Virus record (IMG/VR): IMGVR_UViG_3300011113_000747
Span: 32,001-96,000 of that record
Strand: one strand, 5' to 3'
DNA from: a virus
Length of the DNA stretch: 64,000 bases
Made by a program: the position numbers and the translations under genes. Shown here in pieces: positions 21,920 to 63,515 of this stretch. Position 1 is the first letter of the stretch, and each line of letters opens with the position of its first letter. The notes below the pieces were generated by a model. It was not told the DNA's origin. It searched no databases and was given only the letters and a program-made list of their open reading frames with translations.

Positions 21920-21929
21920 ATTTCTAAAT

Positions 21930-22025
21930 GATCGGCGTCTGAAAAGGTAAGAGAAACCTCTCCCACTGCAAACGTTAGCAGATGAAGTTTTGAGCTTTCA
22001 TAACGACGAGTATACCTGGTCACCA
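21930..22025 (+). ncRNA. CCA-ended multibranch small RNA
   Basis: GATCGG/CTGGTC plus ACCA; CGTC/GACG inner stem enclosing three hairpins. Confidence 0.5.
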
Positions 22026-22030
22026 ATTTC

Positions 22031-22170
22031 AGAACATTCAATCAACCGCAACACAGAGGTCGATCTTGCAAGCCGAGTACCTCTGACGGCTCTGATAACA
22101 GGTGCGCTTGCACGAGCCTTGCGAATGGTTCTGCATGCACCAGCTGAATTAGCTACTCAGTGTGGTGCTA
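22031..22170 (+). ncRNA. Candidate structured RNA
   Basis: AGAACATTC/GAATGGTTCT, CGCAA/TTGCG, CAGAGG/CCTCTG, GGCTC/GAGCC, then a GCACCA/TGGTGC hairpin. Confidence 0.45.
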
Positions 22171-22201
22171 AATTTTTTAATTAACTATAATAAATATTAA
22201 C

Positions 22202-22660: not shown

Positions 22661-22670
22661 ATTTTTCAAT

Positions 22671-22745
22671 GCGCAATGAGCCAGCTGGCGTAGGCAGCGG
22701 TCTGCAAAATCGCTTAGTAGGGTTCGATTCCCTAATTGCGCTCCA
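22671..22745 (+). tRNA. tRNA-Cys(GCA)
   Basis: GCGCAAT/ATTGCGC; GCGGT-CTGCAAA-ATCGC; U73. Confidence 0.9.
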
Positions 22746-22770
22746 ATTCTAGTACGCGTATCCGGCGCTA

Positions 22771-22836
22771 GGCTCGTCGCTGGTTAATTCTAGACATCTG
22801 AGATTCCAAATTTCAGATGAAGTTAACGGGCCGCCA
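22771..22836 (+). ncRNA. Long hairpin ending in GCCA
   Basis: GGCTCG/CGGGCC, GTTAA/TTAAC and CATCTGA/TCAGATG stacked stems. Confidence 0.4.
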
Positions 22837-22858
22837 ATTTTTTTAGTTGAATTAGATA

Positions 22859-22874
22859 GGAAATATCTTATAAT
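22859..22874 (+). promoter_or_regulatory. GGAAA-N5-TATAAT promoter
   Basis: TTGAAT-16 nt-TATAAT with GGAAA in the spacer. Confidence 0.65.
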
Positions 22875-22897
22875 AAAGGTGTAAACAAACAACAAAA

Positions 22898-22980
22898 GCC
22901 CCGGTAGCGGATCCGCCTTCTAAGCGGAGCATTGTACCGTAATTGGACGCATACAGGTTCGAGTCCTGTTCGGGGTACCA
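22898..22980 (+). tRNA. tRNA-Arg(TCT)-like, lacking a D-arm
   Basis: GCCCCGG/TCGGGGT; 7-nt linker; TCCGC-CTTCTAA-GCGGA; CGT-AATTGG-ACG hairpin; ACAGG-TTCGAGT-CCTGT; ACCA. Confidence 0.7.
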
Positions 22981-22990
22981 TTTTTCAAAA

Positions 22991-23067
22991 TCCCTGCGTA
23001 TCATAATTAGTTAATGTCCTCGCCTGTGAAGCGAGCTAAGACGGGGCAGAACCGTCCCAGGGAACCA
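22991..23067 (+). tRNA. tRNA-His(GTG) without G-1/C73
   Basis: CTCGC-CTGTGAA-GCGAG; T-loop GGCAGAA; discriminator A. Confidence 0.78.
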
Positions 23068-23074
23068 TTTCATC

Positions 23075-23362
23075 ATGACAACCACACGCAAAGATAAAAT
23101 TTTAGTTTTCCAACACAAAATAACTAATTTATATTTAGCAGTATGGCGTGAGCCGGGATCAACTTCTTATTTTTGGACATATGATGTTAATGATGCTATG
23201 CAGTCAAATGTATGGGATGAAAATCATGCAATTTTTCAGAACATTGAAAAGGCAGACCCTGCAAAATATTTTGACCCCATGAGAAGCAATGAAATTAAAG
23301 ATTGCAAACTTGTAATGTTTGAAAAAGAGTCTACAATCAATTACAAACAAATTTCATCATGA
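23075..23362 (+). CDS. Hypothetical protein
   Basis: 95 aa ORF; ATGA overlap with the next ORF. Confidence 0.6.
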   Translation: MTTTRKDKILVFQHKITNLYLAVWREPGSTSYFWTYDVNDAMQSNVWDENHAIFQNIEKADPAKYFDPMRSNEIKDCKLVMFEKESTINYKQISS

Positions 23363-23706
23363 CAACATCAACAATCATCAATGAAGATTATGCAATGGAG
23401 CTTACGATGTTGCATCGTTACAGAGACCTTTCAGATGGTCTTTCGGTAATAGAATTTGATTGCAACTTTGATTGGTATCATGGTGATCATTGTCCAAAGT
23501 TTGATTTGAGTCTGAGATTATTCAATTGGACTATTTTTGAGTTTAACATCTACAACAGACATCATGTTGTAGATGAAATAGGCGATGTTTTATTGCCTTG
23601 GGCAAAACAAGATTTTGAAGAATCAGACAAAGCTTTTATAGAGCTTGTAAAAAATTCCGGAATAGTTGCAAACGAGGGTTCGAAACCTCCAGTAGCATCT
23701 AACTGA
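23359..23706 (+). CDS. Hypothetical protein
   Basis: 115 aa ORF, translationally coupled to the previous one. Confidence 0.6.
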   Translation: MTTSTIINEDYAMELTMLHRYRDLSDGLSVIEFDCNFDWYHGDHCPKFDLSLRLFNWTIFEFNIYNRHHVVDEIGDVLLPWAKQDFEESDKAFIELVKNSGIVANEGSKPPVASN

Positions 23707-23940
23707 GATTCAAAGCATCGAAGTTTATAGGTTTGAACGACGGGTTGTTGGCCCGGTAGGTGTGTTCGAGTGCACACGTGCTTTGAGTCTCGACAATTCA
23801 TCTGGCTGTTGCAATGAGGTAAAGACCCAACGCAATGCCAAATAGTCCAAAAAGTAAGAGTAAAATATTCATAAGGGCTGCATTTCAAAACTATGGCAAA
23901 GCTTTTGCTATAGCGATGAAAATTGCAGCAATGCAAAAAA
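23705..23940 (+). ncRNA. Candidate structured RNA with a tRNA-like cloverleaf closed by a 13-bp stem
   Basis: GAGATTCAAAGCA/TGCTTTGAGTCTC encloses three hairpins including GTGTG-TTCGAGTG-CACAC; further long hairpins follow. Confidence 0.55.
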
Positions 23941-23996
23941 ATCCAAGAAACATGTGGATTATCTCAAGGAAGTTCATATAGTTATTTATTCAAAAT

Positions 23997-24084
23997 GCTG
24001 GTGTGGCTGAGCGGCCTAAAGCACTAGTTTTGTAAACTAGCGGGAGTGATCCCATCGTCAGTTCGAATCTGACCACCAGCTCCA
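23997..24084 (+). tRNA. tRNA-Thr(TGT) with long variable arm and class II-type D-arm
   Basis: GCTGGTG/CACCAGC; GGCTGAGCGGCCTAAAGC; CTAGT-TTTGTAA-ACTAG; GGGA-GTGA-TCCC. Confidence 0.88.
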
Positions 24085-24090
24085 TCTTCC

Positions 24091-24270
24091 ATGAACAATC
24101 GCAGATCATTCTTCAAAAGACTCATTGGCTTAATCGCTGCACCAAAGGTTGCGAAAGCAACACACTCAAGCAACATAGTCAAAATGTGGACACCTGAAAC
24201 AGGTGTTACATATGGTGAGTATATTCATCCAGGCATTTGTATTAAACAAATTGACAAAACGGGGAGTTAG
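24091..24270 (+). CDS. 59 aa protein with a twin-arginine-like N-terminus
   Basis: Manual translation MNNRRSFFKRLIGLIAAPKVAKA...; stop overlaps the tRNA-Val 5' end. Confidence 0.5.
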   Translation: MNNRRSFFKRLIGLIAAPKVAKATHSSNIVKMWTPETGVTYGEYIHPGICIKQIDKTGS

Positions 24271-24334
24271 TATAGAAGCAGTACATTGGCTCGACACGCC
24301 AAAGAAGAAGGAGCGTTACCTTCACTCCCTACCA
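24261..24334 (+). tRNA. tRNA-Val(GAC)
   Basis: GGGGAGT/ACTCCCT; TTGGC-TCGACAC-GCCAA (C33); T-loop AGCGTTA. Confidence 0.8.
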
Positions 24335-24345
24335 TAAATATATTC

Positions 24346-24828
24346 ATGAAGTTTGATGATGTTGTAAACGAAGCACTTTCACGTCTTTCGCCTGTAAAAC
24401 TATATAGAGGAGCTGAACCAGATGAGGATCCTTCGAGTGAAGTAGAAAGACCTTGGGCCCAAGGTCGTGAATTAGATTTTCGTGCTGCATTTATGAAAGG
24501 AGATGTTGATGAAGTTATCAGCATGCTGCGTAAGCATGCTGGTGATTCTGGTGTAAGAGCAAAAGGTATAAAGTCATATTCTTTGAATAGAGATGTAGCA
24601 AAAGAGTTTATTTTCGACAAAGGTATAATTAAAGAATTAGATATACCCGCTAAAAACATAATTTCATCAAGACAAAGACTACAAACAATTTTATCTTTAC
24701 CTGATCAACAAAAACAGCAACTGCTCGATCAGGGTGTAGGATTCAACGTTAATAGATTGCTTTCCAAATATAAATTTGCTGCATCTGATCCAGATACAGA
24801 GCAAGAAATAATGATTTACAAAAAGTAA
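24346..24828 (+). CDS. Putative ADP-ribosyltransferase (R-S-E type)
   Basis: LYRG, SYSLNRDVAKEF, EQEIMI. Start moved to ATG 24346 because the track start lies inside the tRNA; TAAATA at 24335. Confidence 0.6.
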   Translation: MKFDDVVNEALSRLSPVKLYRGAEPDEDPSSEVERPWAQGRELDFRAAFMKGDVDEVISMLRKHAGDSGVRAKGIKSYSLNRDVAKEFIFDKGIIKELDIPAKNIISSRQRLQTILSLPDQQKQQLLDQGVGFNVNRLLSKYKFAASDPDTEQEIMIYKK

Positions 24829-24906
24829 GCCAACTATCGCTCCACCCGACAGATAGCTTTGCATGACGGTGCAAATGACCCTGAAAATCGCAAGGAGCAA
24901 AATCAT

Positions 24907-24981
24907 GGTTTCTAAGCATAGACAGCGATGCACACGATTGGTATTCGTGATAGAGGAGCGCAAATCTCCTAGGAGCCTCCA
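24907..24981 (+). tRNA. tRNA-Thr(GGT)
   Basis: GGTTTCT/AGGAGCC; CACGA-TTGGTAT-TCGTG; T-loop CGCAAAT. Confidence 0.82.
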
Positions 24982-25001
24982 TTTTTCAGTGGAACCTTAA
25001 A

Positions 25002-25017
25002 GGAACTACGTTATAAT
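25002..25017 (+). promoter_or_regulatory. GGAAC-N5-TATAAT promoter variant
   Basis: ggaac tacgt tataat, just upstream of ORF 25022. Confidence 0.55.
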
Positions 25018-25021
25018 AAAA

Positions 25022-26071
25022 GTGAAGTTAAAACAAAAACTAAACTTAAAACATATGACAGAAACGTTAGAACAACTCAAAGAAACAGTCAAAAGCCATA
25101 CCATTGTGCCTTTTAGCGCACGTAATATTGCTTGCGAAAAAAATACACTCATTATCAATGACCGATATGTTGTTGATCAACCAAAGAAAGTTCTCGAGAC
25201 TCTAGGTATTCGAGATAATCTCATCAAGGAAATTTTTGATAAACCTGATGTTAATTGGGGCGCCATTCGTGATGCTCTTAATACTATCGATGATAAAAAG
25301 TCTTTTGGTGGTATTGTGGATAAAAACAACCGCATGCTTAATCTCACTAAGGCTGTAAAAGAAGAAACTCAGCTTGACTTTGATAAGCGTCTTGATGAGC
25401 TTTTTAATGCTATTGATGGTAGCCAAAGTAATGAACTTCAGAGTGCAATTTGGAGTCCAAGTGATTGTGCAGTTCATGTCAATTCTATTAATCGCTCAAG
25501 TGATATTGATTGCGGTGCTGGTGATATTTGGAAGTTTGGTACAACTACTATCATTGGAGACGCTATGCAACAGTTCAAGAATTATTTTCTTCGTCTAGTC
25601 TGCACAAACGGTATGACCACACGAGATAACATTGCATATCGAGCTGCTACAGCTTCTGTTAATATTGCTAAGCAGTTTGTGAAGTTTGCTAGCGATGGTG
25701 CTTTTGCAAATCAAATTACCCCTCGTGTTAATCGTCTTCGCAACAATCGAGCTTCTCTTTATGAGCTTACCTCTGTTGCTGATTGTCTTAACGCAGAACA
25801 GCGTGATACGTTTATGCCTGAATATGGCTATACCGTTGAACACTTTAAGAACGCTGGTCACCCAGTCGACGGCTTCTCAGCAGCTCGTAAGAAATTTGTT
25901 TATACAAATGAAAATCTTTATGATGTCTTTAATGTTGCAACCAATCTCGCAACACATCAGCGCGATGTGATCGGTGATGCTGCAGCAATGAGGCTCAATA
26001 AGGTTGCTGGTGAAATCTTCTCAAAAGGTCCGAATCTTGATATTCAGATTTTAGATCTTTGGAAGAACTAA
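25022..26071 (+). CDS. DUF932-like protein
   Basis: YFLRLVCTNGM motif; 349 aa. Confidence 0.55.
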   Translation: MKLKQKLNLKHMTETLEQLKETVKSHTIVPFSARNIACEKNTLIINDRYVVDQPKKVLETLGIRDNLIKEIFDKPDVNWGAIRDALNTIDDKKSFGGIVDKNNRMLNLTKAVKEETQLDFDKRLDELFNAIDGSQSNELQSAIWSPSDCAVHVNSINRSSDIDCGAGDIWKFGTTTIIGDAMQQFKNYFLRLVCTNGMTTRDNIAYRAATASVNIAKQFVKFASDGAFANQITPRVNRLRNNRASLYELTSVADCLNAEQRDTFMPEYGYTVEHFKNAGHPVDGFSAARKKFVYTNENLYDVFNVATNLATHQRDVIGDAAAMRLNKVAGEIFSKGPNLDIQILDLWKN

Positions 26072-26078
26072 AAACTTC

Positions 26079-26123
26079 GGTGGGTAACTAGTACATAAAA
26101 AATATTAGTTACCCACCAAAAAA
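26079..26123 (+). terminator. Inverted repeat / probable terminator
   Basis: GGTGGGTAACTA...TAGTTACCCACC 12-bp stem after the stop codon. Confidence 0.6.
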
Positions 26124-26138
26124 TAGTAGATTTATAAA

Positions 26139-26154
26139 GGAAAGTAGCTAAAAT
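26139..26154 (+). promoter_or_regulatory. GGAAA-N5-TAAAAT promoter
   Basis: TAGATT-16 nt-TAAAAT with GGAAA; precedes the 350-nt structured region. Confidence 0.55.
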
Positions 26155-26160
26155 AAATAC

Positions 26161-26510
26161 ATAAGAGCGACAAAAAGCTCGATGATCTTTGATAAATTCC
26201 GTGGTGGCAGAACAATGGGTCGCCAGCCCATAATGCACTAAGCAACGTCTGAAAAGACGCCAGGTAGGTTGAAAAAGTTATGCCGGATAAAGCTGAAATA
26301 ACCAAGATTGGTCAAATCTTGAGTGACGTAAGAAGACAACAAATCGTTATTATACGACTGATGGCTGTATTGTCTTGGAGGTAACCATTCCTCTCTATCA
26401 TTAACAATGAGAGTAATTAACTCATTGGATAGTGGCTGAATAATCCGACATAATGGAGACTTGTGAGTAGTCAGGAATCTCACCCACACTAATTTCTCTC
26501 GCAAGAGAAT
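26161..26510 (+). ncRNA. Candidate large structured ncRNA or structured leader
   Basis: Many short hairpins (GAGC/GCTC, ATGGG/CCCAT, CGTC/GACG, CAAGATT/AATCTTG, TCGT/ACGA, TCATT/AATGA, TTCTC-TCGCAA-GAGAA); no credible + strand ORF. Confidence 0.55.
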
Positions 26511-26531
26511 AGAAAGGAAACACACATACAC

Positions 26532-26747
26532 ATGAATAAAAACGCATATGAAATCAGGCTAGATGTTCTTGGTATGGCTCATGGTACTATCATGAATCAA
26601 TACCACGAAAAGATTGGTCAGCTTCGCGATAATGCAAATCGTACAAATCATCAGTTTGATGTTGAGCTTATTGATAAGCTTATGCCGAAAACGGCAGACA
26701 TCATTGCTTATGCAAACGAATTGTATTCCTTCGTAGAAGGCAAATAG
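26532..26747 (+). CDS. Conserved phage hypothetical protein
   Basis: NAYEIRLDVL.MA motif; AAAGGA SD upstream. Confidence 0.7.
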   Translation: MNKNAYEIRLDVLGMAHGTIMNQYHEKIGQLRDNANRTNHQFDVELIDKLMPKTADIIAYANELYSFVEGK

Positions 26748-26797
26748 AGTCAAAGTGGTGCTGGATAACCACATTAAACACCAGTAAATATATACAT

Positions 26798-26893
26798 GCT
26801 CCAGTAGCTCAATTGGTAGAGCGGAAGGCTTATACCCTTCGTATGCACCAGATTAGTGCGCGGTTGTCGGTTCGAGCCCGGCCTGGAGTACCA
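26798..26893 (+). tRNA. tRNA-Ile(TAT) with long variable arm
   Basis: GCTCCAG/CTGGAGT; GAAGG-CTTATAC-CCTTC; GCAC-CAGATTA-GTGC variable arm. Confidence 0.85.
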
Positions 26894-35831: not shown

Positions 35832-36287
35832 ATGAGTTCCAAAAAAGAAAAAAAAGAACACTACGTAAACTCTGAAGATTTCAAGAGAGAGCTTCAAAAG
35901 TATTACGACTCTGATGTAATGACTGAGATATTAGGTGTATATATTAAAAAAATTGCAACTGGTCTTAGTTATCTACCTAATTTTATTAACTACACCTATA
36001 AAGATGACATGATAGGTGATGCTCTTATTAAGATGTACAGTGCTCTTAAGAACAAAAAGTATGATTTTTCATCTGGATCCAATCCATTCTCGTATTTTAC
36101 AACGATTGCCTTTCATGCTTTCATTAATAGGATTAAAAAAGAACAAAAACATCACGAAACAATCACAAATTATAAGTCGCAGGTATACGAATCTATGATG
36201 ACCGACCCTGAGATGTCAAATTATGTCTATGTAAAGCCTGAAGGTGATGGTGATGACATGGACTCATATTATAACGAAAATGATTAA
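35832..36287 (+). CDS. gp55: Late-transcription sigma factor
   Basis: HYVN, IATGLSY.PNFINYTYKDDMIGDA, NPFSYFTTIAFHAFINRIKKE. Confidence 0.9.
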   Translation: MSSKKEKKEHYVNSEDFKRELQKYYDSDVMTEILGVYIKKIATGLSYLPNFINYTYKDDMIGDALIKMYSALKNKKYDFSSGSNPFSYFTTIAFHAFINRIKKEQKHHETITNYKSQVYESMMTDPEMSNYVYVKPEGDGDDMDSYYNEND

Positions 36288-44790: not shown

Positions 44791-45519
44791 ATGTCAAAAG
44801 TTGTACTAGCATTTAGTGGTGGAATGGACTCTTCAGTCTTGCTTCATATGGCAGCTGAAAAGTTTGATGAAGTGTATTGCTTATTCTTTGATTATGGTCA
44901 AAGACATAAGAAGGAACTTCAATGTGCAGAAAAGCAGCTGAAGAGTCTTAACGAAGGTGTTAAAATGTTGGTGATTGATACACCACTAAATGTTCTTGCT
45001 CCAACCTCATCTCTTACTAATCTGGATATCGATACCCCAGATGTAAGAGAGATGAGAGGTGAGGCTCAACCTAAGAGTTATGTACCATTTCGCAATATGC
45101 TGTTTATCTCATACCTTTTGTCATATGCAGAGGGAGTGGGTGCAGATGCTGTTTGGTATGGTGCAGCTCAAGTTGACTCATTAGCTGGCTATTGGGATGG
45201 AAGTCCAGAATTTTTAAAAGAGATCAATGATGTAGCTGCTTTGAACCGTGAACATCGTATTGTTGTTGAAGCACCGCTTCTTACAATGTCAAAAGCAGAT
45301 ATCATCTTAGAAGGTATTAGACTTGGAGTTAAGTTTAGTGATACTTGGACTTGTTATGCAGGTGAAGAAAAAGCAGATGCATATTCACCTTCCTCAAGTT
45401 TGAGATTACAAGGATTTGCTTCAGCTGGATATATCGATCCAATTCCTTACAAACAAGATTTAAGGAATGTTTGGAAGCAAAATAACTGTAAGAAGATTCC
45501 TTACGAAACTTATCTGTAA
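44791..45519 (+). CDS. queC: 7-cyano-7-deazaguanine synthase
   Basis: SGGMDSS, DYGQRH.KE, YVPFRN, SDTWTCY. The usual CxxC is replaced by YSPSSSLR. Confidence 0.88.
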   Translation: MSKVVLAFSGGMDSSVLLHMAAEKFDEVYCLFFDYGQRHKKELQCAEKQLKSLNEGVKMLVIDTPLNVLAPTSSLTNLDIDTPDVREMRGEAQPKSYVPFRNMLFISYLLSYAEGVGADAVWYGAAQVDSLAGYWDGSPEFLKEINDVAALNREHRIVVEAPLLTMSKADIILEGIRLGVKFSDTWTCYAGEEKADAYSPSSSLRLQGFASAGYIDPIPYKQDLRNVWKQNNCKKIPYETYL

Positions 45520-46598: not shown

Positions 46599-47300
46599 AT
46601 GTGCGCGATATTTGGATCGACAGATCAATCAATGTTTGAAATATTATTTGAAGCTAATAAAGTAAGAGGTACTTTTGCTTCATCATTAGTAACACTAATG
46701 AAAAATCCAGTTGGTCAAGTTGATGATGTTACAATTCGTAAAGAGCAGGGATTATATTCGTTTGAAAAACTAAAACTCAAACCAAAAAATCATGCTTACT
46801 ATATGGGCCATGTACAGGCTCCTACATCGTCAGCTAGAAAATACAATTATGATACATCACATCCATTTGAGCAAGAAGATTGGCTTGTGTTTCATAATGG
46901 TGTGTTAACTAATCATGAAAGTTTAAATGCAGTTTATTGTAAATGGAATGAAAATCCTGTAGATACATCAGTTATTCCATGTATGCTTCAAGAAAAGTGG
47001 AATGAACTTAAAGAAGGTAAAGCTAAAGCTTCTTCTACTGATGAAGTCAAGATAATTGAAACAATCTGTGAACGACTTCAAGGAACATTTGCTCTCTGTA
47101 TTGTTAACACAACGACCCTTAACGTCTACTTAACTAGACAAGGTAGTACATTATTCTACGACGACAAAGGTAACTACTCTTCAATCAAAGGTAAAACGAT
47201 GGAAGAAGTACCAGAAGGTAAAATTCTCAAACTAACAAAAGATTTCACATTCAAAGCAGTAGGTAAATTCAAACCAAGTTCTCCATTTTTAATCATATGA
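46599..47300 (+). CDS. Class II glutamine amidotransferase (Ntn hydrolase)
   Basis: N-terminal MCAIFG, GHVQAPT, HPF, HNGVL, DTSVI, GTFA. Confidence 0.82.
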   Translation: MCAIFGSTDQSMFEILFEANKVRGTFASSLVTLMKNPVGQVDDVTIRKEQGLYSFEKLKLKPKNHAYYMGHVQAPTSSARKYNYDTSHPFEQEDWLVFHNGVLTNHESLNAVYCKWNENPVDTSVIPCMLQEKWNELKEGKAKASSTDEVKIIETICERLQGTFALCIVNTTTLNVYLTRQGSTLFYDDKGNYSSIKGKTMEEVPEGKILKLTKDFTFKAVGKFKPSSPFLII

Positions 47301-47950
47301 TCGCATTCGTATCAGCAACCAAAGGTGACCCAACCAAAACATTACTTTATAATAGCACAAAAGATATTCTAGAGGTAGCTTGGGCAGCAAACAATACAGA
47401 CCCACTCCCTGTCGTCTATAATGACGCTATTGCGGACTTTACAATTACAGATTATGACTGGGTTGTATTTGTTCATGACGATGTTATCATTGAATCACCA
47501 GAAGCTATTGAGAGACAAATTTATAATCTTGGTGTTGAATTTGATGTCATCGGTGTAGCAGGTACCAGAGAGGTAAAATTACAAGAACCAGCATTGTGGC
47601 ATCTTATGGGTGATAGAAAACATCACAGAGGAGCTGTAGCACACTTGTGTGAATCTACAGGTAAAAAGTTTATGACCAGTTTTGGTAGCTATCCTGATAG
47701 GGTTGTACTTATCGATGGTGTGTTTATGGCTGCTAAAACAGAAGTACTTCAAAAAGTTAGTTTTGATGAAACCAATCCTGCTGGGTTTCACTTTTATGAT
47801 CTAGACTTTTCTATGGCATGTCATAAGGCTGGTTACAGGGTTGGTGTGGGTGATATAACAATCACACACGCATCACCTGGATTACGACAATTCATAGATG
47901 AATGGAAGAAGGGGCAAGATTGGTTCCTTAATAAATGGGTAACAAAATAA
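47297..47950 (+). CDS. Glycosyltransferase family 2-like
   Basis: YNDAI, VFVHDDV, VIGVAG, IDGVF, FHFYDLD. Confidence 0.78.
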   Translation: MIAFVSATKGDPTKTLLYNSTKDILEVAWAANNTDPLPVVYNDAIADFTITDYDWVVFVHDDVIIESPEAIERQIYNLGVEFDVIGVAGTREVKLQEPALWHLMGDRKHHRGAVAHLCESTGKKFMTSFGSYPDRVVLIDGVFMAAKTEVLQKVSFDETNPAGFHFYDLDFSMACHKAGYRVGVGDITITHASPGLRQFIDEWKKGQDWFLNKWVTK

Positions 47951-47981
47951 AAAAAGGCGGCTTAATTAAGCCGCCTTTTTT
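47949..47981. terminator. Bidirectional terminator
   Basis: A tract-GGCGGCTTAA/TTAAGCCGCC-T tract between convergent genes. Confidence 0.88.
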
Positions 47982-47982: not shown

Positions 47983-49242
47983 TTATGCTAATATCTGCTC
48001 TATTGGTTCAGCCTCGTAAACCACCTCAACTGGTCTTAAATCTGGAGTCATCAACTTTGTTCTTGGTGATATACCAATTAAATGGAACATTGTAGCAGCA
48101 AATTGCTGCGGTGTAACTGGATCTGAGTCAGGCTCTGAAGCTAATGCATCAGACGTACCATAAGCATAACCTGCTTTAACACCACCACCAGCTAAAACTG
48201 TTGAGAATACCTTTGGCCAATGGTCTCTTCCGTTTGTAGCATTAATTTTAGGTGTACGACCAAACTCAGATGTCACCATTACAAGGGTTGAATCAAGTAA
48301 TCCACGTTGTTTTAAGTCATTAATAAAGGTTGCAAAGGCTTTATCAAAGTTAATCATATTAGATTCATATGCACCTTTAAGATTTGAGTGGTGATCCCAT
48401 GAACCATACGTTACTGTAACCATTCTTACACCTGCTTCAACAAGACGACGAGCTAGAAGTAAACGTTGACCAGCAGCATTACGGCCATATGCATCGCGAA
48501 CCACATCAGGCTCTTTAGAAAGCTCAAAAGATTCACGAGCTTGTGTTGATGATAACATTGAATATGCATCATTATAGAAAGAATCCATTGCTTTTACTGC
48601 ATCTACGTTTGATTCACGTGTTTTGAAGTAATCATCCACCGCTCCAAGCAATGCACGGCGACGATCTAATTGTTTATCGGAAACATCCTTAGGTGTATTG
48701 AGGTCTTTCACAACAAATCCCGGATCTTCTGGATTAGAACCTAAAGCAAACGGTCCATACTTGGTAGACAAGTAACCGGTGCCGTTTTCAGGTGCAAACT
48801 GATTAGGAACTAACACATAAGCAGGTAGATTGTTACGATTTCCTAATTCATGGCTAATAACACTACCAAATGATGGGTAGTTTAATGCTGGAGATGGTTT
48901 ATAACCAGTGAGCATGTTATGTGTTCCTCTTTCATGAGCTGCTTCACCGTGAGTCATTGAACGAATTACTGTAAGATTGTCAGAGACCTTTGCTGTTTCC
49001 TTTAGAAGTTCACCAAAATGAACACCATCTATCTTTGTCTTAACAGGAGCAAATGGTCCTCTATATTCTGGTGAGCCATTTACCTTATAATCCCACGAAT
49101 CTTGATGTGAAATACCACCAGGTAAGTAGATTTGAACTACTGATGTAGCTTTTGCAGGTGTTTGTGCTTGAGCTTTTAATAATTGTGGTAAACTTACACA
49201 ACCAGCAGCACCAATTCTTAGAATTTCACGTCTGTTATACAT
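47983..49242 (-). CDS. DUF1501 family protein with Tat signal
   Basis: NRREIL signal; YLPGGISHQDSWD, ARRLVEAGV, WDHH, SEFGRTP.IN...GRDHWP. Confidence 0.9.
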   Translation of the reverse strand: MYNRREILRIGAAGCVSLPQLLKAQAQTPAKATSVVQIYLPGGISHQDSWDYKVNGSPEYRGPFAPVKTKIDGVHFGELLKETAKVSDNLTVIRSMTHGEAAHERGTHNMLTGYKPSPALNYPSFGSVISHELGNRNNLPAYVLVPNQFAPENGTGYLSTKYGPFALGSNPEDPGFVVKDLNTPKDVSDKQLDRRRALLGAVDDYFKTRESNVDAVKAMDSFYNDAYSMLSSTQARESFELSKEPDVVRDAYGRNAAGQRLLLARRLVEAGVRMVTVTYGSWDHHSNLKGAYESNMINFDKAFATFINDLKQRGLLDSTLVMVTSEFGRTPKINATNGRDHWPKVFSTVLAGGGVKAGYAYGTSDALASEPDSDPVTPQQFAATMFHLIGISPRTKLMTPDLRPVEVVYEAEPIEQILA

Positions 49243-49323
49243 ACTCTTATTTAATTATCTACTCAAAAAATTAAAAATCCACTTTTATCTTGATATTAGA
49301 ATGTAATAAACTATCATAAAGAG

Positions 49324-54586: not shown

Positions 54587-54851
54587 ACGTGAGCCAGAGC
54601 CTAAAGCAAAAATACCCTATGCAGTACAAAATGGTCACTATGTAGGTGAAATGTTTGTTTATATGGAGAAAGACGATAAAAACTTTTATTTTATCTCTAT
54701 ACCTAAAAATATTAACAGAGAAGTCCCTAAAGAGAAGTTTTTCTTCGGTATTGAAAACAAAATACTAGAAGAAGTTGAAAAACTACCCAATAACATTTAT
54801 AGTCTTTTAAAATCGCAATATTTCTACAACAAAAAGAGAAATACTAAATAA
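54558..54851 (+). CDS. Hypothetical protein
   Basis: 97 aa ORF in the operon. Confidence 0.55.
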   Translation: MVNMVGKIFKREPEPKAKIPYAVQNGHYVGEMFVYMEKDDKNFYFISIPKNINREVPKEKFFFGIENKILEEVEKLPNNIYSLLKSQYFYNKKRNTK

Positions 54852-54863
54852 TAAAAGACTATT

Positions 54864-56651
54864 ATGAAAAAACTCATCTTATTACTAGTAAGTATATGCA
54901 CCTTATCATTTGGTGCTACATTAGAACAGCTTAATAACTATAGTGGTTGGGTTGATTCTGTGTTACAAAAACAATATGTAGCTGCTAATGTTCAACCTCT
55001 TGGTAGGGTTAATGACGATACTTTTGTTCGTCGTGCATATCTTACAATTATTGGTAGAAACCCCACATACGAAGAGTATGAAATGTTCAATAAGGCGACT
55101 GATCCTAATAAAAGACAAGGATTAATTCAGTTTCTTATTAATCACCCTGGTTATACATCACATATGTTTAACTTTTGGGCTGAGTCGTTAAGATTGCGTG
55201 ATAGAATCAACACCACCAATAACTTCTCTGGTGGTCCTTATATTGATTATGTGAAGGATTCTATTGCAGCTAATAAATCTTATTCGAAATTTGTTACAGA
55301 TCTATTAACAGCAACAGGTTCTTATTACGATAATCCAGCTACTGGCTATTTCTATCGTGATTTAGGAATGCCTTTAGATAATCTAATTGGCACAGGTAAA
55401 GTGTTTATGGGTACTGATATTGGATGCGCACAATGCCATGATGATCCGTTCCAAGACTTCACTCAAATGCAGTTCTATAAGATGGCTGCTATGTTTAATC
55501 AGGTAGAACTTAGAGGTCGTGGAAGAGATAAAGACCCAGCTGTTGCAGCTCGTCAAAAAGCATTGAGAGAAGAAATTGATGCTTTGATTAAAGCTGATCC
55601 AATGAAGAATCGTGGATTGAACAATACAATTAATAACTTTGTTGCTGCTATGAGAGCTAATCTTGAAGTAGATGAAAAGCGCGAACTAAAACTACCACAT
55701 GATTACAACTACAAAGATGCAAAGCCATTTGATACAGTTGTACCTGCAGTTCTTTCTGGTAAAACAGAGATTAAAAACAAAGACGACATGAGAAAAGATG
55801 TTGTTGCTTGGTTGGTTAACCCAGAACACCCAACATTCACAAAGAACATTGTGAACCGTTACTGGAAATGGGTGTTCGGTAAGCATATCATCGAAGATTA
55901 TGATAATATCTATGATGATGAAAAGCTTAATAGTGAGCTTATGAATACACTTGCTGCAATTATGGTAAGTGTAAATTATGATACCAAACAGTTCATGTAT
56001 GTATTATACAATACCAAGTTATTTCAACGTGAACTCTACGATGGTGCATATTCAAATTCAGATAAGTTTGTGTTTATTGGACCAGTTAAACAACGTTTAA
56101 CTGCAGAGCAGATGTGGGATTCAGTTATTTCTATTGCTCTTGATAAACCAGATACATTCAAATTGACTTTCCAAGATGAATATGTAAAAGTAATGAGATA
56201 TTCATTAGAAGATCTCACTATTGATAAATTAAAAGCAAAGAATGAGGAATATCAGAAGATTATTCGTTCAAAATACGAGACTGCTCCAAAATATCGTAAT
56301 TACCCTCTTGTAAGAGCATCAGAGGTTAATGATAATGGACCCGTTAATACTATTCTTGAACAGCTTGGTCGTAGTGATCGTGAATTAATTGACACTTCAT
56401 CACGAGAAGGTTCAGTTACACAGGTTATTTCTTTCATGAACGGTCAATTAGCTGAAGTAGCAGTCAACAAAGAGACAAACCTTGCAAAGTTACTTGCAGG
56501 TAAGTCTCCAACCGATACCATTGATATTATCTTTAAGTCTGTATTAGTAAGAAGACCAACAATTGATGAAAAATCTAAGTTTGTTGGTGTGCAGGACGAT
56601 GATATCATCTGGGCACTAGTAAACAGTTCGGAGTTCAAATTCAATAAATAA
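54864..56651 (+). CDS. DUF1549/DUF1553 (PSD1-type) protein with Sec signal and CxxCH
   Basis: MKKLILLLVSICTLSFG; TFVRRAYLTIIGRNPT; FMGTDIGCAQCHDDPF; FTKNIVNRYWKWVFG; RLTAEQMWDS; WALVNSSEF. Confidence 0.9.
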   Translation: MKKLILLLVSICTLSFGATLEQLNNYSGWVDSVLQKQYVAANVQPLGRVNDDTFVRRAYLTIIGRNPTYEEYEMFNKATDPNKRQGLIQFLINHPGYTSHMFNFWAESLRLRDRINTTNNFSGGPYIDYVKDSIAANKSYSKFVTDLLTATGSYYDNPATGYFYRDLGMPLDNLIGTGKVFMGTDIGCAQCHDDPFQDFTQMQFYKMAAMFNQVELRGRGRDKDPAVAARQKALREEIDALIKADPMKNRGLNNTINNFVAAMRANLEVDEKRELKLPHDYNYKDAKPFDTVVPAVLSGKTEIKNKDDMRKDVVAWLVNPEHPTFTKNIVNRYWKWVFGKHIIEDYDNIYDDEKLNSELMNTLAAIMVSVNYDTKQFMYVLYNTKLFQRELYDGAYSNSDKFVFIGPVKQRLTAEQMWDSVISIALDKPDTFKLTFQDEYVKVMRYSLEDLTIDKLKAKNEEYQKIIRSKYETAPKYRNYPLVRASEVNDNGPVNTILEQLGRSDRELIDTSSREGSVTQVISFMNGQLAEVAVNKETNLAKLLAGKSPTDTIDIIFKSVLVRRPTIDEKSKFVGVQDDDIIWALVNSSEFKFNK

Positions 56652-56659
56652 TAAAAGCC

Positions 56660-57895
56660 ATGAATAACTTAACAAGACGTAATTTCGTGCTTAATCTTGC
56701 TTCTGCAGGTTTAGGTGTAACCGTTCTACCTCACGTTGCAGCTGCTCCAGCTAGCAAAAAAGCAGAACATATCATTTATTTGTTTATGAATGGTGGTATG
56801 AGTCATTTAGATACATTTGATCCTAAAACTAATGCAGAAGTTAAGGGTGAATTTAATTCTATTACCACAAATGCAGGTTATGAAATCTCAGAACACCTAC
56901 CTTTGATGGCTAAGCATGGTGATAAGATGGCAGTTGTTCGTTCCATGATGGTTACAACAGGTGATCACGCTGGAGCGCAATATTTACAAAGAACTTCATT
57001 CAAGAAGATTGGTACAATTGTACACCCTAACATGGGAGCTTGGATGTGTCATTATACTGAAGATGGAAAACCAAAAGTCATTCCACAAAACGTATTAATC
57101 GGTGGTGGAGCTGATCATCCTGGTGCTGGTTGGATGCCTAAGAAGTATTCTCCTATTCCAGTTGCAGATCCAATGAGAGGTCTTGATAATACTAAGCTTA
57201 AGAATACAGCAGAGTTCGCAAAGAGGGTGCAAATCCTAGAAAAGCTTGAAAAAGATGCAAATAAGATTATTAACCCAGCTCAAAAGTCATATGCTGAGTT
57301 TTATGATCAAACAATCCGTCTTCTTAACTCTAATGAGCTTGATGTATTTGATCTTTCTAAGGTAGATCAAGCAACAAGAGACAAATATGGTAATAATCGT
57401 TTTGGTCAAGGGGTTTGCTTAGCAAAACGCTTGATTGAGCAAGGTAAATGTAAGTTCATTGAAGTTTCTGATGGTGGTTGGGATACACACGTTAATAACT
57501 TTGAGTCTCTTGAAACCAAACTTGGTATTCTTGATCAAGCAGTCAACGCACTTATCGAAGACCTTAAAGCATCAGGTCTTTACGATAAGACCCTTATCGT
57601 AATTGCAACAGACTTCGGTAGAACACCAAATATTAACATTAATAATGGTAGGGATCACCATCCAGGTGCTTTCTGCGGTGTTCTTATCGGAGCAGGCATT
57701 AAAGGTGGTCAAGCTTATGGTAAATCTGATGATAAAGGTATGAAAGCTGTTGAAAACATTGTAAGTCCATCTGATTTCAATGCTACTATTGCAGCTGCTG
57801 CCGGGTTACCAATTGATGAAATTGTAATGTCACCTGAAAATCGACCATTCAAGATCGCAGATAAAGGTAAACCTATTCAAGCACTTTTAGCTTGA
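56660..57895 (+). CDS. DUF1501 family protein with Tat signal
   Basis: LTRRNFV signal; LFMNGGMSHLDTFDPK, LAKRLIEQG, GWDTH, TDFGRTP.IN...GRDHHP. Confidence 0.92.
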   Translation: MNNLTRRNFVLNLASAGLGVTVLPHVAAAPASKKAEHIIYLFMNGGMSHLDTFDPKTNAEVKGEFNSITTNAGYEISEHLPLMAKHGDKMAVVRSMMVTTGDHAGAQYLQRTSFKKIGTIVHPNMGAWMCHYTEDGKPKVIPQNVLIGGGADHPGAGWMPKKYSPIPVADPMRGLDNTKLKNTAEFAKRVQILEKLEKDANKIINPAQKSYAEFYDQTIRLLNSNELDVFDLSKVDQATRDKYGNNRFGQGVCLAKRLIEQGKCKFIEVSDGGWDTHVNNFESLETKLGILDQAVNALIEDLKASGLYDKTLIVIATDFGRTPNININNGRDHHPGAFCGVLIGAGIKGGQAYGKSDDKGMKAVENIVSPSDFNATIAAAAGLPIDEIVMSPENRPFKIADKGKPIQALLA

Positions 57896-57903
57896 TAATA
57901 TAA

Positions 57904-57919
57904 GGAAATCGTCTATAAT
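57904..57919 (+). promoter_or_regulatory. GGAAA-N5-TATAAT promoter
   Basis: TTGATA-16 nt-TATAAT with GGAAA; before RNase H. Confidence 0.65.
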
Positions 57920-58792: not shown

Positions 58793-59829
58793 TACTTCCT
58801 GAAGAATACATCATAGAAAAGTTTTATACTTACGGTTATCAACCTAAGCGTAACAAATACAATAAGACATATCAATGTGGGTGTCCTATTTGTCGTGAAG
58901 GTAAATCGTTAGGTATAAAACGTAGATGTTTTTATATACCTAAAAATAATAATATCTTCTGCCATAACTGTGGATGGAGCTCACCTCCACTTAAATGGAT
59001 TGAAAAGGTATCAGGACTCACATATGCTCAAATACTTGATGAAGCTAGTAAGTATGATACCACCAAAGTATACGACTTTAAAGATGTTGTAATCAAGAAA
59101 GAGTATGTAGCACCTACATTACCAACAGATTCAATTAATTTATTTGATAAAACTCAGGTAAAGTTTCATAAAGACAACGAAGTTGTGAGAGCATGCCTTA
59201 AACTTATCAAGGATAGACGTATTCATAAAGCTATCAATAAACCAAAAGCTCTTTATGTATCATTGAAAGATAAAACCCATAAAAATAGATTGGTTATTCC
59301 ATTCTATAATGAACATGGAGATATTGTTTTCTATCAATCTAGAACAGTACTACCTAGTATCAATGACATTAAGTCGAAATATACGTCTAAGGTAGGGAGC
59401 GATAAGTCTCTTTATGGTATTAACAATGTAAAAGATGATCTTAACTATGTTTTTCTATTTGAAGGTCCAATTAATGCAATGTTTACTAAGAATGGACTTG
59501 CAGTTGCTGGCATTTCAAAAGGAGAACATTTATTGACTCAAACTCAACAGGATCAACTTAAACGTTATCAGTTTTATAATCGTATTTGGGTGTTAGACTC
59601 CCAGTGGATTGATAATACATCGTTAGTTAAGACTGAAAAGTTACTCAAAAAAGGTGAAACGGTGTTTATTTGGCCAGCAAAGTATGGTAAAAAGCTGAAA
59701 GACTTCAACGATATAGCAATGAAGTATAATCTTGATGAGATTACACCAGAATTTGTTATTGAAAATAGTTTTACTGAATTAATGGGTATGGTAAAACTAG
59801 CAGAGATAAAAAAAGCGAGCAGAAAGTAA
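58789..59829 (+). CDS. gp61: DNA primase
   Basis: CPIC...CHNCG zinc finger, RLVIPF, FEGPINAMF, WVLD, KDFND. Confidence 0.9.
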   Translation: MILPEEYIIEKFYTYGYQPKRNKYNKTYQCGCPICREGKSLGIKRRCFYIPKNNNIFCHNCGWSSPPLKWIEKVSGLTYAQILDEASKYDTTKVYDFKDVVIKKEYVAPTLPTDSINLFDKTQVKFHKDNEVVRACLKLIKDRRIHKAINKPKALYVSLKDKTHKNRLVIPFYNEHGDIVFYQSRTVLPSINDIKSKYTSKVGSDKSLYGINNVKDDLNYVFLFEGPINAMFTKNGLAVAGISKGEHLLTQTQQDQLKRYQFYNRIWVLDSQWIDNTSLVKTEKLLKKGETVFIWPAKYGKKLKDFNDIAMKYNLDEITPEFVIENSFTELMGMVKLAEIKKASRK

Positions 59830-59844
59830 TCTGCTCGCTTTTTT
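59809..59844. terminator. Bidirectional terminator
   Basis: A tract-GCGAGCAGA/TCTGCTCGC-T tract. Confidence 0.85.
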
Positions 59845-61082: not shown

Positions 61083-61337
61083 ATGAAAAAAGATAATATT
61101 TATATTTCAGTCAATACAAAGAGTGGTAAAGAACAAATGCATATTGATCATTATGCAAGGTGGCTTTGTTTGATTGAAGCAATCGATTATATCGATAAAA
61201 AGTGTGAGGATATGGGAACAGATATTGAAAGTGTTGATTGGGTCAAGCCAATTGCATTCCAAAAATACATCGATGAGCGTTTTCACTCAATGAAGCATGA
61301 TCTTAAGTACGAATACACAAATGGTCTATTAGAATAG
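61083..61337 (+). CDS. Conserved phage hypothetical protein
   Basis: DWVKPIAFQKYIDER. Confidence 0.65.
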   Translation: MKKDNIYISVNTKSGKEQMHIDHYARWLCLIEAIDYIDKKCEDMGTDIESVDWVKPIAFQKYIDERFHSMKHDLKYEYTNGLLE

Positions 61338-63515
61338 ACTTACTCTAATAGGTACATCAATTATTTCAGGGTTTAAATTAGCAACACCCGCATTAGGTAC
61401 ACCAGTTTGACCGAAAAGGTTATATCCCCATGAATATAATTCATTGGAATTACTTTTAGCAAGTACTGTTTTATTGATACCATTTTGTTCGTATGAAAAT
61501 ACTTCAAAATCAGTCCAAGTTACACCTTGTGGTCTAATAACCTGTTGTAAGGTATTTTGTTTTGTGACATTACCTTCACCTCTACCATCTATACCACCCT
61601 GCACAAATCCAGATACATAAATATCACCTGAACTAGTTAAAACAAACAGTGTAGCGTTGTTACCAATACCAACCATTTTAGCTTTTTCTACTCCAAAGAT
61701 ATTAGGTACTGGTGTAGTTGCGAGAGATTTATTCTGGTTATCACTGGTACCAAGAGCTCCATTACCATTATTACCCCAAACTCTAATCTCTTTAGAGCTA
61801 AGTACTGCACACACACTTACGTTGCCATTTCCAGTAGGGTCTCCATTTGTTGTAATGTATCTTACACCTGTAAGAGTTTGTGTACTTGATGAAACTGGAG
61901 TCCAAAAAGTCTGAAGAGTTTTAAAGCCTGGAACACCTAAGAAAGAACCGTTACCACATGCACCTTTACCATTATTACCACAAGACCAAACTTTACCCCC
62001 TGTTAAAATATATGAAGTAGAACCAGATGTATAAACATCATCGGCGGACATTTGTTCAGATACCAGCACAGGTAGTGTAACCGACTTTTTAGGGTTAACT
62101 TGAACAGAAGATAAAGCCCAAAGTGGTGAATCTCTGAATGTTGTGGTGTTGGTAGGGGGTCTACCTAAAGCAATATTATTACCTGTACCAGTTGTTGCTG
62201 CGCTAAGACCCAATTGACCAGCTCCGTTCCACCCAACTACATGTACACCGTTAGTTGTATCAATTGCAAGAGCATATCCAAGTGTATTTGAGTTTGAAGC
62301 AGTAATTTTGCGGAGTGAAACACCACCGATTGAACCTGGGGTGGCTACATTATTAATGCAAAGTGGCGTTCTAGTATTAATTAAATCACCTGTACCTAAT
62401 TGACCAATTTTATTTGATCCCCAAGCCCAAAGATTACCACCACTTATTGCATAAACAGAGCAATTAGTAGCACCTATATCATTACCTAAACTAATTGCAA
62501 GACTATCAATACCTGAAAGTGGTGATGTTGTTGGTCCTGAACCAGAAGGTATAACTGTAAATGTATTTCTTCTTGTGGTGTCGCCTAGACCTAACTGTCC
62601 TGCTGTATTATCACCTGCAGAATAAACATAACCTCTGTTGGTAAGTAAAAGAGTTGTTAACCCTGTGGTGCAAATATTAGTAACATATTCTGAAGTAAGA
62701 CCTGTTACAAATGAAACGGGAATTTGTGGAAAATTACCGTAAGCGTTTTGATAAAACCCCATACCACCGTTTTTTGTATTACCATATAAACCACTTGTTC
62801 TTATTTTCCTATCATTATCGTTTATAAATGTAACATTATTACCTGTATTACCTCTACCGTTATTATCGTCACCATTTATTAAAAAAGAAGATAATGGATT
62901 TAGTCTAGAACCAGGTTGTGCTGCTATTCTACTTTCAACATAACCTATAGTAGCAATCCTCGTACTAGGTTCTCCAACTGAAGGTGTTGAAGCTGAAATT
63001 CCACCTGTAAATGTACCACCAGAAAGTGGCATAAACTTACCATCTACATAACCTTTATTAATTAACTCTGTAGAATTAACAGGAGTTAAATTAGATGTTA
63101 TATTACCTGTGATGGTGCTACCAGTTAGTGCAACAAAATTTGCAAATACATAAGCTGGTGATACACTACTCACACTTATCACCGCAGCATCAACATATGA
63201 TTTACTAGCAGCTTTAGAACCTTCTGATAAATCACTTGAGAGGTAAATAAAGCAACTATTATTACCAAAAACATATAAGTTAGCACCAGTAAGAGCAGTT
63301 AGTGTACCAGTAAATGTATCACCTGATGCCTGCAAGTAACGTGTATCATTAGGTGTTAATAAACTACTTAAAATATTACTAGTTAGTGAACCGTAATCAG
63401 TTTTATATGATACTGATGATTCTCCATCTACCACATAGAAAAAATCTCCTGAAGTGTATGTACTTAATGATGAAAGTGTTGTGAGTTTAGTTCCTGGAAC
63501 GATATAGGTGCTCAT
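61329..63515 (-). CDS. RCC1/BLIP-II beta-propeller protein with tail-fibre-like N-terminus
   Basis: Repeats SAGDNTAGQLGLG, WGSNKIGQLGTG, WGNNGNGALG, WGYNLFGQTG; N-terminal KSYVD/KGYVD/GYVE repeats; TAAATA at 63525-30. Confidence 0.8.
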   Translation of the reverse strand: MSTYIVPGTKLTTLSSLSTYTSGDFFYVVDGESSVSYKTDYGSLTSNILSSLLTPNDTRYLQASGDTFTGTLTALTGANLYVFGNNSCFIYLSSDLSEGSKAASKSYVDAAVISVSSVSPAYVFANFVALTGSTITGNITSNLTPVNSTELINKGYVDGKFMPLSGGTFTGGISASTPSVGEPSTRIATIGYVESRIAAQPGSRLNPLSSFLINGDDNNGRGNTGNNVTFINDNDRKIRTSGLYGNTKNGGMGFYQNAYGNFPQIPVSFVTGLTSEYVTNICTTGLTTLLLTNRGYVYSAGDNTAGQLGLGDTTRRNTFTVIPSGSGPTTSPLSGIDSLAISLGNDIGATNCSVYAISGGNLWAWGSNKIGQLGTGDLINTRTPLCINNVATPGSIGGVSLRKITASNSNTLGYALAIDTTNGVHVVGWNGAGQLGLSAATTGTGNNIALGRPPTNTTTFRDSPLWALSSVQVNPKKSVTLPVLVSEQMSADDVYTSGSTSYILTGGKVWSCGNNGKGACGNGSFLGVPGFKTLQTFWTPVSSSTQTLTGVRYITTNGDPTGNGNVSVCAVLSSKEIRVWGNNGNGALGTSDNQNKSLATTPVPNIFGVEKAKMVGIGNNATLFVLTSSGDIYVSGFVQGGIDGRGEGNVTKQNTLQQVIRPQGVTWTDFEVFSYEQNGINKTVLAKSNSNELYSWGYNLFGQTGVPNAGVANLNPEIIDVPIRVSLF

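Follow-up and report, generated by a model that had tools for sequence, protein, structure and literature searches.

PSCyt2/PSD1 and DUF1501 genes of PVC type in a T4-like phage: a candidate auxiliary gene set with a tentatively proposed role in periplasmic ester cleavage

IMG/VR record IMGVR_UViG_3300011113_000747 is a phage genome of 184,542 bp. We analysed bases 32001-96000 of this record, a stretch of 64,000 nucleotides (nt) with a GC content of ~35% (the window, to whose numbering all positions below refer), and in it two adjacent genes for putatively exported proteins, one with the domains PSCyt2 (DUF1549) and PSD1 (DUF1553) and one of the DUF1501 family (DUF1501a), together with a second, separate DUF1501 gene (DUF1501b). 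Our interpretation, to which we assign a probability of roughly 0.6, is that the three genes are a phage auxiliary set that stems from bacteria of the PVC group (Planctomycetes, Verrucomicrobia, Lentisphaerae), most likely from Verrucomicrobiota, that has adapted to the phage and is kept by selection, and that works by the mechanism proposed below. The identity and the origin of the set are, in our judgement, close to secure. That ester hydrolysis by its products feeds the phage is a tentative proposal, with the odds somewhat against it. The genes and the motif on which most of the argument turns are located as follows.

54864-56651, + strand: PSCyt2 (DUF1549) + PSD1 (DUF1553) gene, product P0121, 595 amino acids (aa); intact open reading frame, assigned by Pfam, Sec-type leader
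55425-55439, + strand: codons of the CAQCH motif (residues 188-192 of P0121), placed by homologue alignment
56660-57895, + strand: DUF1501a gene, product P0122, 411 aa; Pfam 329 bits, model positions 1-390 of 390
47983-49242, - strand: DUF1501b gene, product P0123, 419 aa; Pfam 363 bits, model positions 1-390 of 390, found in a genome-wide DUF1501 search

A preliminary description of this DNA had proposed an intact, adjacent pair with these domains, one protein carrying a Sec-type and the other a twin-arginine signal. Both reading frames are indeed open and lie on the same strand with a gap of 8 nt, and Pfam places PSCyt2 (123 bits, cut-off 29.8) and PSD1 (94 bits, cut-off 28.5) in P0121, and DUF1501 (PF07394, cut-off 27), far above the threshold, in both P0122 and P0123, which are ~32% identical to each other. 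The PSCyt and PSD1 domains are said to have been named first by Studholme et al. in 2004. DUF1501b had been missed, as had a three-gene cassette of other phages and the signs of its exchange (see below). Judged by eye, the leader of P0121 (basic at the start, with a hydrophobic core of 13 residues and SFG/A) fits a Sec signal. DUF1501a begins with the twin-arginine motif TRRNFV (nt 56672-56689), after which come a hydrophobic stretch and an AAA site, and DUF1501b with NRREIL, a hydrophobic stretch and an AxA-like site; both leaders were judged from the motif, and at least 90% of 43 DUF1501 homologues retain the two arginines. We would therefore predict, from the leaders, Sec export of PSCyt2/PSD1 and export of both DUF1501 proteins through twin-arginine translocation (Tat). 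In P0121, C188, A189, C191 and H192 of the CAQCH motif noted earlier are invariant across 41 homologues with identities down to 32%. H49, D51, D54, K56, H103, T112, D275, H277, R321, R331, D332 and H333 are invariant in phage and PVC DUF1501 proteins and in both paralogues; the His/Asp clusters H49, D51, D54, H103, D275, H277, D332 and H333 are among them.

The PVC character of the pair, also part of the preliminary description, is borne out by its cellular relatives. The best 80 species-representative genomes with a relative of DUF1501a (40-48% identity) belong, by their titles, to Planctomycetota or Verrucomicrobiota, apart from one bin titled Acidobacteria and two that have no title, and in ~70 of these 80 loci a PSCyt2/PSD1 gene lies directly upstream of the DUF1501 gene on the same strand. 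Among cellular genomes and cellular-named metagenome proteins, the closest copies are 48% (DUF1501a), ~62% (DUF1501b) and ~37% (PSCyt) identical to the phage proteins. The module of Planctomycetes, Verrucomicrobia and Lentisphaerae thus has the same Pfam families, gene order and strand as the phage pair; in it, too, the first protein bears a signal peptide and the second a twin-arginine leader, and CxxCH is invariant. In contrast to it, the phage pair is phage-borne, its PSCyt protein is a short two-domain form that lacks PSCyt1 and carbohydrate-binding modules, and the phage copies have the GC content and codon use of the phage, phage-type TAAATA promoters and a further DUF1501 from a different subfamily. 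In the PVC modules, signal peptides, Tat motifs and motifs resembling those of cytochromes have been noted before, and the function of the modules was left open (Kamneva et al. 2012, PMC3542564). The same holds for freshwater Verrucomicrobia, which have many PSCyt genes, often near sulfatases and in numbers inverse to those of glycoside hydrolases (He et al. 2017, PMC5615132).

A quickly built maximum-likelihood tree with 108 DUF1501 proteins places the viral and metagenomic 'a' proteins in one clade (support 100) that is weakly sister (81) to a mixed, mainly verrucomicrobial clade. The 'b' proteins stand apart across a long branch, and within their group the main viral clade has as its sister a clade of Verrucomicrobiaceae (Prosthecobacter, Phragmitibacter). 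Since 'a' and 'b' fall into separate groups, they derive from two old subfamilies rather than by duplication within the phage. The nearest cellular relatives of DUF1501b are Verrucomicrobiaceae proteins with 58-62% full-length identity. These are solo genes with no adjacent PSCyt gene, as is DUF1501b in the window, whereas several other phages have PSCyt adjoining 'b'; the cellular orthologues are ~25 residues longer at the N-terminus (444 aa), and their neighbours are unrelated to those in the phage. In a FastTree analysis of 137 PSCyt proteins, the viral sequences form two groups, one of 48 members that includes the window's protein and one of 20 members that is sister to Planctomycetota sequences, which suggests, for this non-exhaustive cellular sample, at least two captures of PSCyt by viruses overall. 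The second group is found in ~20 viral contigs (L178-L204; numbers with L denote individual loci), where the proteins have ~660 aa and are 31-34% identical to the window's. The cellular relatives being nearly all of the PVC group, the PVC host of the preliminary description is retained and narrowed, tentatively, to Verrucomicrobiota, which we consider the probable host phylum; Planctomycetota would be a much weaker candidate and any other group a weaker one again. Prosthecobacter genomes hold 14-25 strong DUF1501 matches each; the one with loci L205 and L206 (4.6 Mb) has 14, besides 58 sulfatase-family matches.

That these genes are part of a bona fide phage is clear from several lines of evidence. 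The record has direct terminal repeats and is rated 100% complete, and it belongs to a T4-like phage with genes for family B DNA polymerase, UvsX/RecA, DnaB helicase, gp32, UvsY, gp46/47-like SbcCD and primase, together with a late sigma factor resembling gp55; elsewhere, the same genome encodes the portal, prohead protease, major capsid protein and tail sheath. The PSCyt-DUF1501a pair is flanked by small reading frames downstream of gp32 and by a 5'-3' exonuclease gene, in a neighbourhood of gp32, DnaB, exonuclease and primase genes. We considered mis-assembled host DNA, which the preliminary description had named as a way in which it could fail, or else a recently captured, decaying pair of no use to the phage. 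No point in support of either was found, and we regard both as very improbable. The same genes recur with the same synteny in contigs of several samples. The GC content at third codon positions (GC3) of the three genes is 0.21-0.26, against 0.247 (sd 0.08) on average in the phage, and the GC content of PVC loci is much higher (median GC of the 80 nearest loci, 0.57); no cellular relative exceeds 48% ('a') or 62% ('b') identity. Nor are the homologues decaying pseudogenes, the other ground for failure that the preliminary description had given: 73 of 74 near-full-length PSCyt matches in viral contigs are open frames of at least 560 aa, and pairwise ratios of non-synonymous to synonymous substitution (dN/dS) are 0.04-0.09 for PSCyt, 0.04-0.10 for DUF1501a and ~0.11-0.12 for DUF1501b, in the same range as those of gp32, DnaB, exonuclease and primase. 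The three genes are thus a host-derived auxiliary set under purifying selection. When the region and both proteins of the pair were compared with 50,697 phage records (blastn, tblastn), no match was obtained from this record set, which may omit close kin.

A DUF1501 gene lies within 600 nt downstream of PSCyt in 63 of the 68 viral loci with room downstream. The layout of the window, with the pair and a separate DUF1501b, is found in L005-L008, L011, L014 and L026. In L003, L004, L009, L010, L012, L015 and L027 all three genes are on one strand in the order DUF1501b, variable short insert, PSCyt, DUF1501a. L004 (IMGVR_UViG_3300036770_007495, 224.7 kb) has this cassette directly upstream of gp15, portal, prohead protease and major capsid protein; its module proteins are 92%, 86% and 81% identical to ours, compared with 71% for the major capsid protein, 59% for portal and 45% for gp15, and the cassette is placed elsewhere in the genome. 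In L006, L007 and L011, which share the synteny of the window, synonymous divergence (dS) is 0.57-0.79 for DUF1501a and 1.0-1.1 for PSCyt, compared with 1.4-2.3 for gp32, exonuclease, primase and DnaB, whose protein identity is also much lower; dS values above 1 are close to saturation, so that this difference between module and flanks is a trend and not a measurement, which tells against leaning on it. The cassette appears to have been shared between phages more recently than its flanks. Some cassettes (L003, L004, L015, L028) have an additional 272-aa FMN-reductase-like gene, which is absent from the genome of the present phage. In L004 (4173-18750) the cassette with this gene lies between a cytidylyltransferase-like gene and the gp15/portal/protease/capsid genes; in L028 (203.8 kb) DUF1501b and the 272-aa gene are present, and PSCyt and DUF1501a were not detected in the 21-kb locus.

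The preliminary description had also noted the same element before both genes of the pair and had proposed late control. The elements relevant to expression are these.

54845-54857, + strand: 13-mer, copy 1 (exact match); TAAATA core at 54845-54850, 13 nt before the PSCyt ATG
56645-56657, + strand: 13-mer, copy 2; overlaps the last PSCyt codons and TAA stop (FKFNK*) and ends 2 nt before the DUF1501a start
49248-49253, - strand: TAAATA core of DUF1501b, with a 5-nt spacer to the ATG at 49242 (the genome-wide spacing class)
47950-47981, - strand: terminator-like hairpin, 14 pairs and a T run, directly after DUF1501b
57892-57919, + strand: sigma-70-like promoter of the 5'-3' exonuclease, TTGATA-16-TATAAT, 11/12
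35832-36287, + strand: gp55-like late sigma factor gene (phrog_234, E 8e-29)

The 13-mer TAAATAATAAAAG indeed occurs exactly at 54845 and 56645 and nowhere else in the window, where ~0.02 occurrences are expected by chance and where none of 100 shuffles had two copies. The excess disappears when one mismatch is allowed. We therefore dropped the whole 13-mer as a shared regulatory element and kept its TAAATA core. The full pair of 13-mers is common only to the closest relatives, L005 and L014. TAAATA alone is kept more widely: of 16 viral loci, 15 have it upstream of the PSCyt gene, in varied contexts, and in L003, L004, L015 and L025 it starts at -11 or -12. In the present phage it starts at -19 (PSCyt), -15 (DUF1501a) and -11 (DUF1501b); the copy before DUF1501a overlaps conserved C-terminal PSCyt codons and the stop, and may owe its conservation to coding. 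A scan of upstream hexamers across the whole genome (251-278 reading frames called) gave two position-locked motifs, TAAATA, which 35 genes have at -11 and 10 at -12, and TATAAT, which 41 have at -12. TAAATA was seen within 35 nt upstream of 63 genes, compared with ~5 expected by chance. TATAAT precedes small early-region genes, DNA polymerase and the exonuclease, and TAAATA precedes portal, prohead protease and tail sheath as well as nrdA and nrdB (G000:C1:13258-17017, outside the window; TAAATA and not TATAAT). Since the ribonucleotide reductase genes nrdA and nrdB share the motif, 'not early' describes the class better than strictly late. The spacing of -11/-12 leaves almost no leader, and many of the mRNAs may therefore be leaderless.

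T4 gp55 recognises TATAAATA. This full octamer is absent before the three genes, where the sequences are CTAAATA, AATAAATA and TTAAATA; the TAAATA promoters are probably read by the gp55-like sigma factor of the phage. Behind such a promoter, the PSCyt gene and DUF1501a are likely to make up a single operon; DUF1501b, which is directly followed by the terminator-like hairpin, is a one-gene unit. With the predicted sigma-70-like promoter of the exonuclease the module ends and the promoter class changes. Late control is thus partly supported: the TAAATA core and the gp55 homologue are in its favour and would put the module into another class than its replication-gene neighbours, with gp55-type, non-early expression, whereas the repeated 13-mer itself is not the control element and the class is not confined to late genes.

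What the proteins might do is best approached from DUF1501. A kinship of this family with alkaline phosphatases and sulfatases had been stated in the preliminary description and is found again at fold level. The AlphaFold2 model of DUF1501a has a mean predicted local distance difference test (pLDDT) of 86.4. Compared with VIA, in an all against representatives search, it gave the following matches (Z score, root mean square deviation (rmsd) and aligned residues).

ENPP6: Z 20.9, rmsd 3.0 A over 245 residues
PafA: Z 20.8, rmsd 3.9 A over 272 residues
NPP7: Z 20.5, rmsd 3.0 A over 245 residues
sulfatases: Z 17-19, rmsd 3.2-4.1 A over 245-265 residues
LtaS, EptA and MCR-1: Z ~16, rmsd 3.5-3.8 A over 245-255 residues

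Foldseek likewise gave E ~1e-7 to sulfatases and to LtaS. With hhalign, residues 284-385 align with Prosthecobacter sulfatases at 82% probability, and D318 then corresponds to the metal-ligand Asp of the sulfatase SDNG motif; residues 280-328 align with nucleotide pyrophosphatases/phosphodiesterases (NPPs, PF01663) at 14% probability. DUF1501 shares with the NPP/ENPP enzymes, PafA and the S1 sulfatases the core fold (Z 17-21 over 245-272 residues), Asp/His clusters and D318. It differs from them in that identity is 9-18% and in that those enzymes need no PSCyt-type partner. We place DUF1501a, by its modelled fold, in the alkaline-phosphatase superfamily, with an Asp/His metal site predicted from sequence, and suggest that it probably acts like a metal-dependent esterase or transferase. 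H103 had been a candidate for the formylglycine place of the sulfatases; this came from motif spacing alone, was backed by no tool and was dropped.

We propose the following mechanism. In the non-early phase, PSCyt2/PSD1 and the two DUF1501 proteins would be exported to the host periplasm, where the DUF1501 enzymes would, with the help of metal, act on organic substrates in the periplasm or envelope by cleaving or transferring their phospho- or sulfo-ester groups. PSCyt2/PSD1 would be their obligatory partner and contribute by substrate binding or by activation through redox or metal chemistry. The phage might gain phosphate or sulfate for replication, or a changed envelope. There is a precedent for the first of these: phages carry phosphate-scavenging genes, and pstS and phoA of cyanophages are phage auxiliary metabolic genes; the phosphatases PhoX and PhoD are, moreover, Tat-exported. 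Like pstS and phoA, the present set consists of host-derived genes for exported proteins under selection in T4-like phages of aquatic bacteria. Unlike them, its family and host group are different, its substrate is different or unassigned, and no link to a phosphate regulon was found.

Several points weigh against the proposed mechanism. The scores of DUF1501a with the Pfam models Sulfatase (PF00884; 18.1, cut-off 25, C-terminal part) and Phosphodiest (PF01663; 16.1, cut-off 23) remain below threshold. Inspection of both DUF1501 sequences gave no C/S-x-P-x-R formylglycine motif, and with the low Sulfatase score this places them outside the S1 sulfatases. The nucleophile of the superfamily (Ser, Thr or formylglycine) was not placed by profile alignment, where the N-terminal half aligns with neither sulfatases nor NPPs. 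The hosts have many DUF1501 paralogues, which agrees better with glycan chemistry specific for particular substrates than with phosphate scavenging in bulk. Neither in DUF1501 nor in PSCyt2/PSD1 is there a member whose function has been tested (PMC3542564, PMC5615132). Lastly, although the analysis shows the domains, fold, motifs, conservation, origin, promoter motifs and cassette structure, we infer export, cofactors (metal and the attachment of haem), the partners' contact, the substrate, the timing and the benefit.

The point about glycan chemistry leads to a different account, in which the set remodels the envelope or its glycans: a phospho- or sulfo-substituent would be removed or added in order to block superinfection, to stop progeny from sticking to debris or to ease lysis. 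In PVC bacteria, fusions of PSCyt proteins with carbohydrate-binding modules are frequent (PMC3542564, PMC5615132), which agrees with such a role, although the PSCyt protein of the phage has no such module. DUF1501 has further been linked, with no function assigned, to clusters of chitin-synthase/family 2 glycosyltransferase (GT2) genes in Proteobacteria (PMC5122149). A comparable setting is seen around DUF1501b, beside which the following genes are grouped.

44791-45519, + strand: QueC gene
46599-47300, + strand: glutamine amidotransferase-like gene
47297-47950, + strand: small GT2-like glycosyltransferase gene

The arrangement of amidotransferase, GT2 and DUF1501b is kept in L007, L014 and L026, and its GT2-DUF1501b part in L011, a locus that begins inside the GT2 gene. 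Of the Prosthecobacter orthologues of DUF1501b, one adjoins a D-Ala-D-Ala carboxypeptidase gene and the other a gene for a 718-aa GT2 enzyme. These neighbours have no homology to those of the phage gene, however. QueC with the amidotransferase-like and GT2-like proteins may have a role in 7-deazaguanine modification or in sugar chemistry. The promoter class, which is common to structural genes, would suit remodelling, and so would the resemblance of the fold to transferases of the LtaS, EptA and MCR-1 type (Z 16), but the transferases of the superfamily are membrane-anchored whereas DUF1501 looks soluble and Tat-exported. We consider remodelling as the main role unlikely.

The other part of the proposed mechanism is the contribution of P0121, which the preliminary description had called a c-type cytochrome. 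The invariant CxxCH and the Sec-type leader stand behind that name. A Pfam search of P0121 at E up to 0.01 gave neither PSCyt1 (PF07635) nor another cytochrome family, and an NCBIfam search gave no informative family; P0121 is the two-domain form without PSCyt1, which is also present in PVC genomes. Its AlphaFold2 model is all-helical (pLDDT 91.8, predicted TM score (pTM) 0.91). Foldseek found no significant match for it in the PDB (best E 0.1), and the look-alikes in the ESM Atlas all scored <0.8, too low to be informative. With VIA, the best matches of residues ~410-595 (window 56091-56648) are phycobilisome linker domains, which at Z 5.7, 4.9 and 4.8 are weak, under the tool's own meaningful level for helical proteins, and are a lead and not a fold assignment. 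Residues 48-75 (window 55005-55088) match DUF4214 weakly (E 0.0097), and a motif of the type 'GR/RR-x-PT-x-x-E' is present in both parts of the protein.

Kamneva et al. (PMC3542564) proposed an electron-passing role for the PVC module. Applied to the phage, PSCyt2/PSD1 would be a genuine haem c protein that donates electrons to DUF1501 or accepts them from it, and the phage would alter the periplasmic redox or respiratory chemistry of its host. The invariance of CxxCH and the conservation of its flanks (CAQCHD[DH]PF) fit this proposal. A Sec leader would also suit haem attachment after export, as Tat export of the partner would suit a cofactor-loaded enzyme (PMC3542564). However, both residues inside CxxCH, which are usually variable in haem-attachment motifs, are nearly fixed, and this suggests a structural or metal site instead. 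There is, as mentioned, no cytochrome c domain, and the fold of DUF1501 is that of a hydrolase or transferase and not of an oxidoreductase. Neither Foldseek nor VIA turned up a cytochrome-like fold, a result that is inconclusive rather than negative, since a missing match does not exclude such a fold. We consider the redox account rather improbable, somewhat more so than envelope remodelling. The cytochrome label stays an unproven hypothesis because of the missing domain and the nearly fixed inner residues.

Helper genes directly upstream of a Tat-type DUF1501 are also known from the DUF1800 + DUF1501 pairs of Proteobacteria, Acidobacteria and Actinobacteria (PMC5122149). In L209, a DUF1800 protein of 699 aa precedes a protein of 416 aa with a match to P0122 (E 3e-11 over ~160 residues). 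A homology of PSCyt2/PSD1 with DUF1800 was considered and is not claimed, because hhalign gave a probability of 1%; only a short C-terminal motif is alike. Our literature searches on DUF1501, DUF1800, DUF1549 and DUF1553 found no tested function, and those on DUF1501 with phage found no description of the PSCyt/PSD1-DUF1501 pair on phages, in line with the preliminary description.

Returning to the auxiliary set as we interpret it, selection as strong as that on the replication genes and the apparent trading between phages argue that the proteins are a small autonomous unit that matters during infection. We speculate that the three-gene cassette is swapped among T4-like phages of Verrucomicrobia as a minimal, self-sufficient periplasmic ester-cleaving system, for instance for phosphate in phosphorus-poor lakes; this is possible, and in our view a little less probable than ester hydrolysis as such. 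In Planctomycetes and Verrucomicrobia, a genome holds tens of PSCyt/PSD1 and DUF1501 genes, with no function assigned. If the idea is right, the single-copy, accessory-free cassette would be the first tractable entry to the function of this large orphan gene family, and would mark out a large group of aquatic phages to which no host has so far been assigned. The phage set is at any rate a compact construct for biochemistry and a clue to the host of widespread, uncultured T4-like phages, and it is possibly a new class of auxiliary gene.

Further features of the window lie apart from the module. A second strong terminator-like hairpin (59809-59844, + strand) follows the primase gene. In both it and the hairpin at 47950-47981, runs of A and T flank a stem of 14-15 pairs on either side, so that bidirectional action is possible. 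A tRNA block of higher GC content (18788-26893) holds at least 21 tRNA genes (ARAGORN). A 728-aa RCC1-like repeat protein, in PHROG a 'regulator of chromosome condensation', is encoded at 61329-63515 (- strand), and a TAAATA element precedes its gene.

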